Assembly (NCBI GenBank): GCA_021107855.1
Contig: JAIORZ010000011.1
Span: 7,686-71,685 of the forward strand
DNA length: 64,000 nt
DNA from: an archaeon
Lineage (GTDB): Archaea > Nanobdellota > Nanobdellia > Pacearchaeales > GW2011-AR1
Direction of reading: 5' to 3'
Shown: positions 10,923 through 42,896 of the stretch, in pieces
Layout: every line of letters starts with the position of its first letter
Position numbering within the stretch: position 1 is the stretch's first letter
Program-made: the position numbers and the translations under genes
Notes under the pieces: model-generated
What the model was told of the DNA's origin: nothing
Seen by the model: the letters and a program-made list of their open reading frames with translations, nothing else
Database searches by the model: none

Positions 10923-11210
10923 TTATTTTAGGACGGAAATTCTTTCGATGATGATTTGTTTTTTATTTTTGTAAATGCTGGATTTTCCTTGGAATTTTAT
11001 TTGGTCGTTTTTATTGAGAGATAGATTTATTTTGTCGAATATAATTAATTCGGCTGAGTGGTTTTCTAGTTGGATTGTGGTTTTTGTAGGGGAATAGTGG
11101 ATTGAGCTTATTGTGGCGGTTTGGATTGATTTTGTTTGGGCGAGGAAGATTAGTAAGAGAATTCCTAGGAGAGTTAAGATAAGAGTTAACTTTTCCGCTC
11201 TTGTTGTCAT
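10923..11210 (-). CDS. membrane-anchored OB-fold-like small protein (hypothetical)
   Basis: 95 aa with an N-terminal TM helix followed by a beta-rich domain. ATGA overlap with the upstream GTPase gene. Confidence 0.4.
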   Translation of the reverse strand: MTTRAEKLTLILTLLGILLLIFLAQTKSIQTATISSIHYSPTKTTIQLENHSAELIIFDKINLSLNKNDQIKFQGKSSIYKNKKQIIIERISVLK

Positions 11211-12121
11211 TCTGTTTGAAACTCTATTATGTCTTTGTCTTTTAGGTGGTGTTCTAATCCGATTATTTGACCGCCGAATTTACTAGATGGTCCCCAGACT
11301 CGTGCTCGTTTGATTTTTTTTGACATTCCTTTTCGAATTTTTTCTGCGGCATCTCTGAAAGTTGAATTTTTCTTTAATATCATTGGTTCTTTACTTGGAA
11401 TTTTTTTGGGTTCTTTTGTGTAGATTCGGATGATTGGGAATGTTTTGAATATCTTTCGTTTTAGTTGTGTGAGTTTCGTTTTAGTCGGTGAATTTGATAG
11501 AAATATGTAGGAGAGTTTTTTGTGTTTTGATTTTAGGGTTGCTTCTATTTTTCTTTTTTCTATTTCTGAGAGGAGGTCTTCTTTATTAAATACTAAGATG
11601 GTTTTTGCGTGGGTTCTGTAAAGGAGGTCTGTGGCTTTTTTGATTTGGTCAAGGTTGTCGATTGTTAGGAGGAGTGTGTCGGTTGAGTTGACGAGGGATT
11701 TGTCGTGGTTTGGGAATGAGGGGATGTCGATGATTTGGATTTGGGCGTCTTTGTAGTGGAAGGTTCCGAGTTGGGGTTGGTATGTTGTGAAAGGGTGTGG
11801 GGAGGTTTTTGTTTCTTGGGACGTTAGGGTTTGGAAGATTGTGGATTTTCCGGTGTTTGGGAATCCTGTGAGGACGCATTGCATATCAGCTTTTTTGATT
11901 CCGACTTGGTTCCCTTTGCCTGATTTTTTTTGTTTGACTAGAGAGGTTTTTAGTTTTTTGTAGCGATTTGTTAAATTCTTTCGCATGTTTTCCGAAGATT
12001 TATGTTTTGGGACTTCCTTCATCATGATTTCTAGGCATACGAGTCTTTCTTCGTCCGAGGTGGCTTCTTGATATTCTTGTTCGGCTTTTTGGTAGAAGGG
12101 TGATTGGTTTGTGCTTGCCAT
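11207..12121 (-). CDS. DRG/Obg-like GTPase with C-terminal TGS domain
   Basis: G1 motif GFPNTGKST, FTTYQP (G2 region), and a C-terminal TGS-like ARVWGPSSKFGGQIIGLEHHLKDKDIIEF. Confidence 0.8.
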   Translation of the reverse strand: MASTNQSPFYQKAEQEYQEATSDEERLVCLEIMMKEVPKHKSSENMRKNLTNRYKKLKTSLVKQKKSGKGNQVGIKKADMQCVLTGFPNTGKSTIFQTLTSQETKTSPHPFTTYQPQLGTFHYKDAQIQIIDIPSFPNHDKSLVNSTDTLLLTIDNLDQIKKATDLLYRTHAKTILVFNKEDLLSEIEKRKIEATLKSKHKKLSYIFLSNSPTKTKLTQLKRKIFKTFPIIRIYTKEPKKIPSKEPMILKKNSTFRDAAEKIRKGMSKKIKRARVWGPSSKFGGQIIGLEHHLKDKDIIEFQTE

Positions 12122-12203
12122 GATTTCTTTCTTTTTAGAAAAAAGAAATTTCTCGCAAGTAAAAAAACTTATTTTCCAAAACTGCGTTTTGATTTAGTTC
12201 CAT
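12122..12203 (-). repeat. intergenic repeat family A, copy 1 (mini-ORF plus hairpin, abuts the DRG start codon)
   Basis: 82 nt, about 90% identical to 42109-42190 by manual alignment. The minus strand reads ATG..MELNQNAVLENKFFYLREISFF..TAA (12203-12135). Confidence 0.85.
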
Positions 12204-12236
12204 AAGGTTTTTAATGTTAGGAGGTTTATTAAATTT

Positions 12237-24979: not shown

Positions 24980-25675
24980 TTATTTAGAAAGTTTTTTCAT
25001 TTCCTTGACGTTATCGATTAAGGGGTCCATTAATTTTGAGACTGTTCCGTGAAGGTTGTCGAGGTCTTTGTGTATCATTGCGGAGGATTCCCCGAATTCT
25101 GCCATTTTTCCTATGACTGCCTGTTGGAGTTGTTGAATTGAGTTTTCGATTCGTTTTAGGCGGTCGTCCATATTATCAACTTTATCTTGAATCTGGTTTT
25201 TGAATGAAACCATGTCGCCGACTTTTGTTTTATAATTTTCTAATTTTTCGGTTGCTACTTGTTCTGCAATTTCGGAGATTGTTTCGGTGTCCATGGATCC
25301 TTGTGGTGCGTAGTAGTCTTGTTCAGAATATGCTTGTGGTGTTGGTTGATAGTAGTCTTCTTCTTGTTGTGGCGGTGCTGGCTGGGCATATTCTTCTTGT
25401 TGAGGTTGTGGCGGTGCGGGTACCGGTGGTTGTGCCGCGGGCTGCTGTTCTGGTTCTCCTGGCATCATGGAAGCTTGCATCCCTTGTGGAGGTGGTGCGC
25501 TTGGCATTCCTTGTGCTGGTTGTTCTGGAGGCGATACGGCTTGTTTTATTTTAGCTTGACTGAGTGCATCGTTGATTTCTGCGGGAGAAATTCCTTCGTT
25601 TTGGAGTTGTGTTGTTATTTCAGCTTCAGATTTATTTTGTTGTTGCATTTCTGTTATTCGATCGAGAGTTGCCAT
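24980..25675 (-). CDS. hypothetical protein: small helical N-domain, Pro/Gln-rich linker, C-terminal coiled coil
   Basis: Start reset to ATG 25675 (MATLDRITEM); the track extension to 25741 runs through repeat A. The composition-biased PQ linker spans roughly 25300-25520. Confidence 0.55.
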   Translation of the reverse strand: MATLDRITEMQQQNKSEAEITTQLQNEGISPAEINDALSQAKIKQAVSPPEQPAQGMPSAPPPQGMQASMMPGEPEQQPAAQPPVPAPPQPQQEEYAQPAPPQQEEDYYQPTPQAYSEQDYYAPQGSMDTETISEIAEQVATEKLENYKTKVGDMVSFKNQIQDKVDNMDDRLKRIENSIQQLQQAVIGKMAEFGESSAMIHKDLDNLHGTVSKLMDPLIDNVKEMKKLSK

Positions 25676-25787
25676 GATTTCTTTCTCTTTAGAAAAGAGA
25701 AATTTCTCTTCCACCCAAATGGCGTACCTCTGTTGAGGCAAAGTAGAGAAACTTAATTTCCAAAACTGCGTTTTGATTTAATTCCAT
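25676..25787 (-). repeat. intergenic repeat family A, copy 2 (with a net 30-nt internal insertion)
   Basis: Same ends as copies 1 and 3. The mini-ORF (25787-25689) is 32 codons long because the insertion at about 25709-25742 is in frame. Confidence 0.85.
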
Positions 25788-25788
25788 G

Positions 25789-26172
25789 TTAAGATATAGG
25801 CTTTACGCTTTTTATTTCTTTGTTAATTAGTTCTTCGACGTCTTTTTTCCGCATAAATTCTAAGGGTTGGAAATCTTTTAACATTCTTTCGATCAGCCCG
25901 ATTTCTTCTCGTTTGACGAATTTGTTGAATTCGGTTAAGAGGGAATTTGAGACTTTTTTTATTTTTTCGACGTCTTGTTTGATTGTTTGATTCTCCCGTT
26001 TTATTTCCCTTAAGTTTTCTTCTATGTCTTGGCGCGAGGATATTAAATTTTTGCCTAAAAGTAAGACACGTTCCCTGATAAGCTTGTTCCGTTCATCTAG
26101 GTCTCGGAGTCTTGTGTTGAAATCGGATAAGAGGAACTTAATTTGGTTGTCTTGGGGTTGAGGGTCGACCAT
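25789..26172 (-). CDS. coiled-coil protein (hypothetical)
   Basis: 127 aa with a heptad-rich charged sequence. Transcribed divergently from the secretion ATPase gene. Confidence 0.5.
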   Translation of the reverse strand: MVDPQPQDNQIKFLLSDFNTRLRDLDERNKLIRERVLLLGKNLISSRQDIEENLREIKRENQTIKQDVEKIKKVSNSLLTEFNKFVKREEIGLIERMLKDFQPLEFMRKKDVEELINKEIKSVKPIS

Positions 26173-41371: not shown

Positions 41372-41974
41372 ATGGAATCGAATAAGAAATCGAGTGAATT
41401 TAATTTTTTGGAGGCGGCGATGGTGAAGCGGACGGAGTTGTTTAGGGAGTGTACTAATATTGTTGTTGGAAAGGGGAATTTGAATGCGGATATTTTGTTT
41501 GTCGGTGAGGCGCCTGGTCGGAACGAGGATTTGCAGGGTGTGGCTTTTGTTGGGGCGGCTGGGAAGAATTTGGATAAATTGTTATTGAGTGTTGGGCTAA
41601 GTTTGGATGATGTTTATATTGCGAATATTTTGAAGTGTCGACCGCCTGAAAATCGTGACCCGTTACCGGAGGAGATTGTTGCGCATACGCCTTGGTTGTT
41701 GAAACAGATTCGGGAGATGAAGCCGAAAGTTGTTTGTTCGCTTGGGAATTATGCGACGAAGTTTTTTTTGGCTGGGGGGGATGTTGAGGGGATGAAAAGT
41801 CAGCTGGGGATTACGCAGGTTCATGGAGTTGTTAGAGAGATTGAGATGGAAGGAGTGGGATTTAAATTGATTCCTTTATTTCATCCGGCTGCGATTATTT
41901 ATAATAGGACGAAGTTGACGCCGTTATGGGAGGCTGATATGGAAGTTGTGAAGAGAGAAGTTAGCGCCGTTTAA
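41372..41974 (+). CDS. uracil-DNA glycosylase, family 4
   Basis: GEAPGRNED motif A, AGKNL, and C-terminal LFHPAAIIYN motif B. Confidence 0.8.
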   Translation: MESNKKSSEFNFLEAAMVKRTELFRECTNIVVGKGNLNADILFVGEAPGRNEDLQGVAFVGAAGKNLDKLLLSVGLSLDDVYIANILKCRPPENRDPLPEEIVAHTPWLLKQIREMKPKVVCSLGNYATKFFLAGGDVEGMKSQLGITQVHGVVREIEMEGVGFKLIPLFHPAAIIYNRTKLTPLWEADMEVVKREVSAV

Positions 41975-42107
41975 ACGGGGCTGACCTTGGTGGTGCGTTT
42001 CTGATTTTTGAGAAGGTGTAGTGAGCGGAGTTTGTTTCTTTTGAGCATTTATCACAGGTGTCTTTGAGGGTGTAGGTTTTGCAGGTTGGGCATTTTTTGA
42101 GGTGCAT
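41961..42107 (-). CDS. nop10: H/ACA RNP protein Nop10 (below ORF-track cutoff)
   Basis: Manual translation gives MHLKKCPTCKTYTLKDTCDKCSKETNSAHYTFSKIRNAPPRSAPFKRR (Zn-ribbon CxxC...CxxC plus a YTL motif). It lies downstream of aIF2-alpha, as in the conserved archaeal cluster. Confidence 0.7.
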   Translation of the reverse strand: MHLKKCPTCKTYTLKDTCDKCSKETNSAHYTFSKIRNAPPRSAPFKRR

Positions 42108-42190
42108 TGATTTCTTTCTCTTTAGAAAAGAGAAATTTCTCGCAAGTAGAGAAACTTAGATTCCAAAACTGCGTTTTGATTTAATTTCAT
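42108..42190 (-). repeat. intergenic repeat family A, copy 3 (between aIF2-alpha and Nop10)
   Basis: Mini-ORF MKLNQNAVLESKFLYLREISLF (42190-42122). Its ATG is 1 nt after the aIF2-alpha stop, and its stop is 14 nt before the Nop10 ATG. Confidence 0.85.
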
Positions 42191-42191
42191 A

Positions 42192-42896
42192 TTACTTATC
42201 TTCGGTTGCGTGGAATTCGCAGTTGTTTTCTTTTGCTCGTTTTTCTAATTCTTCTAGAATATCTACCATTTCTTTTTTGCCTTGCTTAAAGTCTTTTACG
42301 GTTAGTTTTAAGGAAAAGTTTCCTGCGGAGATGTAGGTTACTTTTACGTCGTCGTTTTTTAGGTCGAAGATTTTTTTGATTCGGGTTAGTCCATCGTCTT
42401 CTAGACATTTGATTTTTATGTTTTGGCGAAGTTGCTCGTTTTTTCTTTTTTTGTTGATGATTTTTTCTATTGCTGTTTGTTTCTCTTTTGGGATGTATTT
42501 TTGAAGGAGTTCTGGGGCTGTTCGAACTTCTGTCGTGAATTCGTAGAGGGTGTCAAAATCGTTTAGTATTTTCTTTTTGATTTTTTCTTCATCTTCTTTT
42601 AGAATTTGTTTAAAGGATACGTTGATTGATTGGGATTGTTTGAATTTTTGTAGCACTTCTTTTTTTTCTTTTGAGTTTACTCTTCTGAGGGAGAGGTGTG
42701 CGTGGTTGCCTTCGATTCTTAGGACTTTGCAGACGACTTGTTTATTTGGGACGACGTATTGCCTCATTAGTTTTATTCGTCCTGCGGCGATTTCGGATGA
42801 GATGATTGTGCCTTCTTGTCCGTTTGGCATTTCTACGAATGTGATTGTGTTTGTTACTTCTTTGACTTTGCAGAGTATTAGGTCTCCTTCATTCAT
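42192..42896 (-). CDS. translation initiation factor aIF2 alpha subunit
   Basis: N-terminal S1 domain (GDLILCKVKEVTNTITFVEMPNGQEGTIISSEIA...), a helical middle and an alpha-beta C-terminus. Neighboured by eS27 and Nop10. Confidence 0.65.
   Translation of the reverse strand: MNEGDLILCKVKEVTNTITFVEMPNGQEGTIISSEIAAGRIKLMRQYVVPNKQVVCKVLRIEGNHAHLSLRRVNSKEKKEVLQKFKQSQSINVSFKQILKEDEEKIKKKILNDFDTLYEFTTEVRTAPELLQKYIPKEKQTAIEKIINKKRKNEQLRQNIKIKCLEDDGLTRIKKIFDLKNDDVKVTYISAGNFSLKLTVKDFKQGKKEMVDILEELEKRAKENNCEFHATEDK

Follow-up and report, generated by a model that had tools for sequence, protein, structure and literature searches.

Repetitive extragenic palindromic (REP) sequences, bacterial interspersed mosaic elements (BIMEs) and the palindromic elements derived from IS200/IS605 are units that form hairpins and whose orientation follows one DNA strand, in keeping with insertion into single-stranded DNA. 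[quoted passage not shown] Mycobacterial leaderless short open reading frames (ORFs) begin with a 5'-terminal AUG, form the first cistron of their transcript and can govern the genes behind them (PMC4633059; bioRxiv 10.1101/834739). For Haloferax volcanii and Escherichia coli, termination-reinitiation is described at stop/start overlaps (ATGA, TAATG) or across fewer than about 30 nucleotides (nt) with no Shine-Dalgarno sequence (Huber et al. 2019 and 2023, cited in PMC12548453), and in Haloferax the coupling is reported to extend up to, and to fade by, about 30 nt (PMC12548453). The subject here is an element of about 82 nt that occurs three times, always on the - strand (12122-12203, 25676-25787 and 42109-42190), in a 64,000-nt stretch of a Pacearchaeales genome (assembly GCA_021107855.1, contig JAIORZ010000011.1, positions 7,686 to 71,685; the window). 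Each copy ends 0-1 nt ahead of the ATG of a - strand gene. The element resembles each of the systems above in part and departs from each. The reading favored here, held with slightly more confidence than doubt, is that it is a mobile leader cassette whose means of action are a leaderless upstream ORF and termination-reinitiation on the host gene.

Results

The 22-nt core at the 5' end of the element and the 31-nt core at its 3' end each match the window three times, with 0 matches expected from 100 shuffles. A covariance model built from 30 copies was searched over 49 congeneric genomes, all of them metagenome-assembled genomes (MAGs) and incomplete (69-100% complete). This genome is labeled G000, congeners carry other G numbers and loci carry L numbers. 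The genus contains 105 copies in 22 of the 49 genomes, with 0-25 per genome, and 9 copies are present in this 936-kb assembly, in which the contig of the window is C1. Seventy-seven of the 105 adjoin, within a few nt and in sense orientation, an ATG that opens at least 40 codons. The 862 ORF starts of the genome are preceded by a sharp TATA signal at -29..-22 and by an A-rich TFB recognition element (BRE) at -36..-32, and upstream of them there is no G enrichment and no purine-rich ribosome-binding (Shine-Dalgarno) signal. The distance from TATA box to start is established for archaea, and judged by it most mRNAs of this genome are probably leaderless. Same-strand gene spacing is bimodal, at -4, -1 or +1 nt or at 30 nt and more, so that a gene either follows on from its predecessor by coupling or is served by a promoter of its own. 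Of the start-adjacent copies, 59 have an ATG; a TATA box stands in register with it in 25, an upstream ORF has its stop at -4 to +7 nt in 23, and neither is found in 11. What stands at the +1 position, or in the coupled setting 1 nt past the upstream stop, is the ATG of the element.

Comparison of the same loci among congeners revealed empty sites. At FtsZ, 26 of the 29 readable congeners have the arrangement TATA-21 nt-ATGGAAGA; G000 and G030 keep this promoter and spacer, with the element placed between the spacer and the FtsZ ATG, and G033 also carries the element. The site before aIF2-alpha is empty in G000 and occupied in G030, G063 and G003. In congeners the aIF2-alpha stop and the Nop10 start are coupled at a distance of -4, -1 or +1 nt; in the window it is the element ATG that lies at +1. 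Copy 3 does split this gene pair, as an earlier account of the window made from its letters only (the sequence-only reading) had proposed. The empty sites prove insertion. Other leaders were seen at some of these starts. The aIF2-alpha gene of G001 has an unrelated leader, in which a leaderless ORF of 10 codons stops 1 nt short of the ATG, and the FtsZ gene of G001 has a 33-nt unrelated leader with a canonical GGAGGT (L102 and L055 are the G001 leaders); G033 (L107) and G029 (L110) carry other hairpin-rich inserts at the aIF2-alpha start. Internal initiation driven by a Shine-Dalgarno sequence was considered for the element and rejected: the A-type tail has no GGAGG to face the 16S 3' end (GGATCACCTCCT) and the genome has no such signal. 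B-type copies do carry GAGG and may initiate in this way.

The short ORF that begins within the element (the mini-ORF) keeps its geometry across the family. A start-like codon is present in 69 of the 77 start-adjacent copies, and in 56 of these 69 the geometry is coupled, with the ORF ending 10-20 nt before the host ATG (36 copies) or in an ATGA/TAATG overlap (20 copies). Control frames shifted by +1 and +2 gave coupled geometry in 0/69 and 6/69. In an independent metagenome set it was found in 32 of 44 copies, and leaders lengthened to 105-215 nt by nested inserts kept coupling in 11 of 16 cases. Locus L013 encodes MENKLKRSFG... yet stops at the loop TAA, and copies that lack the loop stop end as ATGA overlaps, aided by an extra spacer base. 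The peptide itself is free to change: 51 distinct C-terminal variants occur among the 56 coupled copies, substitutions are non-synonymous and the mini-ORF peptides have no Pfam match. Selection appears to act on the hairpins, the AUG, the openness of the frame and the place of the stop, and not on the peptide. Fusion of the mini-ORF to the host protein was rejected because the frames differ; in the window the mini-ORFs are out of frame with the host gene, the 13-14 nt gap not being a multiple of 3. The DRG gene behind the element in G030 (L197/L008; C12:31476-31584) begins with ATA versus ATG in its orthologues, which may represent non-AUG reinitiation or a sequencing error.

On the sense strand the element consists, from the ATG, of 12 unpaired bases, hairpin H1 (CAAAAC-nnn-GTTTTG), a variable triplet, hairpin H2 (GTTTCTC...GAGAAAT), hairpin H3 (TTTCTCTTT-tct-AAAGAGAAA) and GAAATC. 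Across 103 distinct copies, 96.7% of cells are paired and 15 of the 21 pairs have changed on both sides. Compensatory cells number 119, compared with 21 +/- 3.6 in shuffles (0 of 500 reached 119) and 13-24 in slid-partner controls. Changes on both sides affect all 6 pairs of H1 across the family and 6 of the 9 pairs of H3, in which 98.8% of cells are paired. The C:G to T:A double change that the sequence-only reading had noticed in the 3' hairpin is real; in the 103 distinct copies this pair is U:A in 71, C:G in 23 and U:G in 4, and it is never unpaired. The compensatory changes support all three predicted hairpins, and the B variant, the L087 type and the matched T/A length changes of H3 can be recognized in the raw sequence. 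H2 is rich in U:G pairs, which would be A:C mismatches on the opposite strand, so the folded strand is taken to be the sense strand. Variation is focused in the H1 loop, the triplet, the H2 loop and the H3 loop, and the single-stranded linkers are conserved like the stems. Minimum free energy folds of this low-complexity A/U sequence are little better than those of shuffles (z from -0.9 to -2.4), and the case for structure is for that reason drawn from covariation and not from folding energy. At gathering score Rfam identified only tRNAs in the window, and its best permissive matches had E > 1; a C/D-box or other known small RNA was rejected, as no C or D boxes were seen by eye and Rfam gave no match. 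Inserts belonging to other small hairpin families are nested in the loops of H2 and H3. One further mini-repeat, rich in GC (CGCCCCA...ATTTGGGGTGTGC...), is found in such loops at L097 (G030 C12), L031, L069 and L285. In G030, at L097 downstream of aIF2-alpha, it extends Nop10 in frame at its N terminus, and the extension has its start in an ATGA overlap with the aIF2-alpha gene.

The distribution of the element is that of a repeat that has moved. In this genome, contig C2 holds three further copies of nearly the same sequence, upstream of the genes for FtsZ, ribosomal protein L11 and RpoP; two copies of the B variant lie before a POR gene (2-oxoacid:ferredoxin oxidoreductase) and in a tRNA-Thr(CGT) intron; and the ninth copy has a different 5' hairpin and sits after a methyltransferase gene. 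Metagenome contigs added 54 unique copies. Carriers are labeled in public records as Candidatus Pacearchaeota, Nanoarchaeota or Woesearchaeota MAGs, and the 22-nt pattern was not found in 24 genomes from other genera of the order. Six bacterial matches to this pattern in genome contigs look like chance. No element match was found in viral contigs, and a virus as carrier was rejected on that ground. Element units form tandem arrays of two and three, long and short forms are exchanged at the same locus between species, and about 3 of the 105 copies (L221, L230, L231) lie in frame inside protein genes. Direct repeats of host sequence, 16-23 nt long, border some copies; start-codon copies share just ATG(G) on both flanks. 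Copies with an alternative GC-rich 5' hairpin follow the stop of a UPF0020-type methyltransferase gene (L242:251-364 in G015; L001:7511-7594, which is C1:383772-383855 of G000). These are flanked by an approximately 23-nt duplication of the 3' end of the gene, including its TAG, which reads GGGACATCCTAGTCCTCATCTAG and GGGACATCCTTGTCCTGAAATAG in G015.

Orientation is locked to one strand. All 44 copies on the 14 contigs that hold at least two share a strand with the other copies of their contig (14/14 contigs concordant), and in this genome every copy is on the C+A-rich strand of a chromosome whose skew is extreme, although genes are divided about 50:50 between the strands. One strand of the genome is about 64% G+T over hundreds of kb. 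Two copies lie in tRNA genes, both antisense to the tRNA. The tRNA-Thr(CGT) gene (L002:7070-7224; G000 C1:205069-205223) has an intron of 82 nt at 37/38, the sequence of which is that of the B variant in reverse complement, and the tRNA-Thr(GGT) gene of G068 (L240:209-367, on C17) has an 86-nt intron at 37/38 within which lies a diverged copy of the element. The best match to tRNA-Thr(CGT) is uninterrupted in at least 14 congeners, which makes the intron a recent gain. By eye it has a CUCG/CGAG central helix, and the excised RNA would be complementary to the POR leader (67/68 nt) as well as to the FtsZ leader over the latter's first 31 nt. Excision of the leaders by the tRNA splicing endonuclease, by which the mRNA would become leaderless again, was also considered and rejected, because a 5' exon of at most 3 nt would leave no exon helix possible; the leader copies would lack the exon helix of an archaeal bulge-helix-bulge intron, which has two 3-nt bulges at its splice sites. 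The test by which the sequence-only reading would have a leader function refuted does turn up exceptions, namely the two antisense copies in tRNA genes and the roughly one-quarter of copies that are not at start codons. A mobile element accounts for these exceptions better than a leader function alone.

Element sequence is far better conserved than its surroundings. Between G000 and either G030 or G026, four-fold sites of the FtsZ, DRG, L11 and PQ genes are 42-68% identical, and the FtsZ promoter spacer is identical at 5 of 21 positions between species. The FtsZ copy of the element is identical at 78 of 83 positions and the L11 copy at 77 of 82, with no length difference (about 94%). Either the element is strongly constrained or it has recently spread or been homogenized; locus-specific 5' variants that are common to species favor old, constrained copies.

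The three window copies were examined individually. Copy 1 (12122..12203, - strand; 82 nt, T-type; covariance-model score 104.6 bits) is the leader of a DRG-type GTPase gene (11207..12121, - strand; Pfam MMR_HSR1 and TGS). Its mini-ORF (12135..12203, - strand) has 22 codons and a TAA, encodes MELNQNAVLENKFFYLREISFF and stops in the H3 loop, 13 nt ahead of the DRG ATG. A TATA box read from the sequence, TTAATAAA, lies at 12225..12232 (- strand), -29..-22 from the mini-ORF ATG, and scores 5.3 against a 95th percentile of 1.7 at random positions. It is the host promoter, outside the element, and has the register of the genome-wide TATA signal. Folding and the family-wide changes place H1 (CAAAAC-GCA-GTTTTG) at 12177..12191; H2 (GTTTTTT-tacttgc-GAGAAAT), in the loop of which nested inserts land, is at 12148..12168, and H3 (TTTCTTTTT-tct-AAAAAGAAA), with the mini-ORF stop in its loop, is at 12128..12148 (all - strand). 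Copy 2 (25676..25787, - strand; 112 nt, C-type long form; 96.2 bits) leads the gene for a PQ-rich coiled-coil protein of 231 aa (24980..25675, - strand). The stop of the gene upstream (25789-26172) is 1 nt before the mini-ORF ATG. A 32-nt insert (25709..25740, - strand) replaces GC in the H2 loop for a net gain of 30 nt in frame, and the product is 32 aa. The insert folds as two small hairpins of its own; relatives have it too, at other loci, where G:U pairs have changed to G:C. Copy 3 (42109..42190, - strand; 82 nt, C-type; 107.5 bits) encodes MKLNQNAVLESKFLYLREISLF and lies between aIF2-alpha (42192..42896, - strand), the stop of which ends 1 nt before the element ATG, and Nop10 (41961..42107, - strand; Pfam Nop10p). 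A 1-nt spacer at 42108 separates it from the Nop10 ATG (42105-42107).

Most of what the sequence-only reading had recorded for these copies was borne out: three - strand copies adjoining the ATG of a gene (copy 3 being 42109-42190), the 8 of 82 positions at which copies 1 and 3 differ (recounted), the stops 13-14 nt ahead of the main ATG (13, 13 and 14 nt as measured for the three copies), the upstream stops 1 nt before the mini-ORFs of copies 2 and 3 and the TATA-like box of copy 1. Pfam recognized the DRG-type GTPase and Nop10 and gave no family above cut-off for the PQ-rich protein. A mini-ORF is present in all three copies, with the 22-codon consensus only approximate for copy 2.

Two further features of the assembly were noted. 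The only match to a signal recognition particle (SRP) RNA, L003:10518-10616 (G000 C1, about 223.5 kb), is to the bacterial small SRP model (52 bits) and not to the archaeal one. Contig C5 (9168 nt) has tandem tRNA-Ile/tRNA-Ala beside the 16S 3' end ...GGATCACCTCCTTTC, a bacterial-style rRNA spacer; this contig may be contamination, since a different 16S 3' end is found on C2.

Discussion

The favored reading describes a small, non-autonomous insertion cassette, mobile still or until recently, that would sit at the host start codon. It would be transcribed as the leader of the host gene, from the host promoter and, to judge from TATA position only, starting at its own AUG; in the alternative setting it would lie 1 nt past the stop of the preceding gene. 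Initiation in these archaea would use the 5'-terminal AUG of a leaderless mRNA or coupling to a preceding stop, and insertion would put the cassette AUG into that privileged position. Ribosomes would translate a short ORF of irrelevant sequence through H1 and H2. Termination would follow 13-16 nt short of the host AUG, in the H3 loop, or else where the stop overlaps that AUG (ATGA/TAATG), and the ribosomes would then reinitiate on the host gene. Such reinitiation would explain the sense orientation, the nucleotide-exact placement and the conserved start and stop around a free peptide. Together with strand-specific insertion it would also explain why carriers use one strand only and why antisense copies are tolerated in spliced tRNA introns. 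Movement by strand-specific insertion, or by template switching at short homologies (ATGRAA), is speculation. The idea of a mobile or duplicated leader cassette had been raised by the sequence-only reading, and site polymorphism, the range of copies per genome, tandem arrays and nested inserts now uphold it. Of the functions suggested there, an upstream ORF with reinitiation is the only one supported, start and stop placement being kept across different reading frames.

Several observations weigh against this reading. Because copies share descent, independent events are fewer than the counts given above suggest; the several distinct frame classes can, however, be taken as separate events. Covariation was counted on a model-fitted alignment, which favors structure. 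About 17% of start-adjacent copies lack the coupled geometry, through an early stop, the absence of a start, or ATA, GTG or TTG in place of ATG. A stop-to-start gap of 13-16 nt is rare between ordinary genes of this genome, so that coupling may be weak. The element has no terminal inverted repeats (by eye, its 5' end ATGGAAYTAAATC and 3' end AGAAAGAAATC are not complementary), no fixed target duplication was found, and its mobility would have no known agent. A Y1 transposase, the only family tested, was not found in the copy-rich genomes G000, G030, G011, G003 and G026. Across the 49 genomes, PF01797 (Y1) is present in 12 and unrelated to element copy number, and a copy whose two ends are parted by a gene was not seen; IS200/IS605-type mobilization was rejected because the Y1 transposase is absent from copy-rich genomes. 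The identity of about 94% between species is not obviously predicted by tolerated insertion and hints at a specific function. Lastly, the model has no explanation for retention of the hairpins, which is the main argument for a domesticated leader.

That alternative, which we consider unlikely, supposes a shared cis-regulatory RNA, the hairpins or alternative folds of which would bind a protein or RNA or sense ribosome supply. Genes for cell division, transcription and translation would come under common post-transcriptional control, with the mini-ORF as part of the switch. The close identity of the element between species whose synonymous sites are saturated fits this proposal, as do linkers conserved as well as the stems, predicted folds that include mutually exclusive alternatives, and hosts enriched for FtsZ, Spt5, L11, aIF2-alpha, DRG, RpoP, Nop10 and other ribosomal proteins. 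The same 5' variants recur at the same locus across species (ATGAAAAAATTAAATC before the MAERK gene in G019 and G030; TTGA(A/G)AAAAGAT before Spt5 in G067 and G033), which indicates old, maintained copies. However, most congeners run these genes without the element, and the unrelated leaders at the same starts (aIF2-alpha in G033, G029 and G001; FtsZ in G001) point to a hotspot or a tolerated site and not to a specific regulator; nor does a domesticated leader give reason to expect one-strand orientation, copies in tRNA introns or copies in frame inside genes. A further alternative is a strand-locked palindromic repeat of the REP or palindrome-associated (PATE) type that would spread purely as DNA, through single strands at the replication fork, the ATG, the ORF and the place of the stop being incidental effects of survivorship in which translation plays no part. 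The concordance of the 44 copies on 14 multi-copy contigs, the confinement of all copies here to the C+A-rich strand despite evenly divided genes, the antisense orientation of both tRNA-intron copies and the hairpin-rich architecture all suit such a repeat. We nevertheless regard it as improbable: the copy-rich genomes named above have no Y1/RAYT (REP-associated tyrosine transposase) gene, 77 of the 105 copies are sense-oriented within a few nt of an ATG, the U:G pairs favor a transcribed sense strand, and the frame geometry outlives frameshifts and nested inserts far above control frames, which needs selection on translation.

Two other functions proposed in the sequence-only reading are not supported. 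A multi-copy gene for a functional 22-residue peptide, MELNQNAVLExKF[FL]YLREIS[FL]F, would account for the ATG and open frame of most copies and for the YLREIS[LF]F ending of about 17. Its C-terminal half is wholly replaced through frameshifts in many copies that look intact (for example ...LLARNFFFSKKERNQ, ...FSDSREPLFLKEGA and MENKLKRSFG...), codons 7 and 11 vary only non-synonymously with the third position of codon 7 invariant, nearly all substitutions in the family are non-synonymous, and the many C-terminal variants without a Pfam match complete a case that makes a peptide gene scarcely credible. A portable promoter or terminator for the downstream or upstream gene is suggested by the AT-rich composition, by TATA-like words (ATTAAAT, TTTCTAAA) and by the T5-T8 runs of T-type copies, which could serve as archaeal terminators. 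Against a promoter, the TATA box in register with the element ATG lies upstream of the element, in host sequence that is present at empty sites too, and nothing TATA-like occurs at -29..-22 from the host ATG. Against a terminator, C-type copies have no run beyond T4, and operon-internal copies 1 nt past a stop leave no room for one. A transcriptional module of either kind is thus highly improbable.

A bolder extension of the favored reading is conceivable, and we would not expect it to hold. The element would follow a previously undescribed selfish strategy, translational transparency, in which it targets the +1 position or start codon of leaderless or coupled genes, donates an AUG and hands ribosomes on. 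It would later have been domesticated into shared control of FtsZ, Spt5, L11, aIF2-alpha, DRG, RpoP and Nop10, and would have seeded tRNA introns antisense to the leaders. In its boldest version, FtsZ, Spt5, L11 and the other hosts would be under one control that depends on the upstream ORF and the hairpins.

If the reinitiation reading is true, the family illustrates a way for an insertion to persist where about 90% of the genome is coding and there are no 5' untranslated regions: the start position stays occupied and a disposable ORF is coupled to the host gene. It would then also be a natural, many-times-replicated experiment on archaeal leaderless initiation and termination-reinitiation; the latter, to our knowledge, is known in archaea for no more than a few gene pairs of Haloferax. 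Three subjects that are usually handled separately come together in the family: small dispersed repeats, upstream ORFs and the birth of tRNA introns. The Pacearchaeota belong to DPANN, a superphylum of very small archaea in which gene regulation is, as far as we know, essentially unknown, and the element offers a concrete sequence for reporter systems and DPANN metatranscriptomes.

Comparison with Known Systems

No description of such a start-codon element was found in the literature searched, and the phrase "start codon" is absent from the MITE review (PMC10969869). Correia elements and MITEs are the nearest in general character, being short, non-autonomous, multi-copy, nested, variable in copy number and co-transcribed upstream of genes (PMC10969869). 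At 82 nt and 0-25 copies in 49 congeners the present element fits that description. It differs in having no terminal inverted repeats and no known transposase, no fixed target duplication was evident, and its leader copies are start-codon-exact and always sense and supply an AUG and a coupled ORF instead of a promoter, an integration host factor (IHF) site or an RNase III site. RPEs are likewise palindromic; their hallmark, in-frame insertion into genes, applies to about 3 of the 105 copies here, most copies being separate upstream ORFs that are out of frame with and unfused to the host protein, in an archaeal host with leaderless mRNAs. Like REP sequences (mentioned in PMC3184786) and the IS200/IS605-derived elements, the family has hairpins and one-strand orientation. 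Unlike REP sequences, it has no Y1 in copy-rich genomes, is longer, combines three hairpins with a reading frame and is located at start codons rather than in 3' intergenic regions.

On the translational side, the mycobacterial short ORFs are locus-specific and sense amino acids through their codons, whereas here one mobile structured repeat stands before dozens of genes. Termination-reinitiation as set out in PMC12548453 agrees with the element in its spacing, by overlap or by up to about 30 nt, and in its A-type tail, which fits the lack of a Shine-Dalgarno requirement. In the known cases two protein genes are joined, whereas here the upstream partner is the throw-away ORF of an insertion element, and the commonest gap, 13 nt, is unusual for the genome's own gene pairs. 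The tRNA-intron copies are closest to the transposed bulge-helix-bulge tRNA introns of Thermoproteales (Fujishima et al. 2010, summarized in PMC4090602), which are repeats at 37/38 with intron-less relatives. Unlike those introns, the sequence found here is mainly an mRNA leader, and it lies antisense to the tRNA in both cases.

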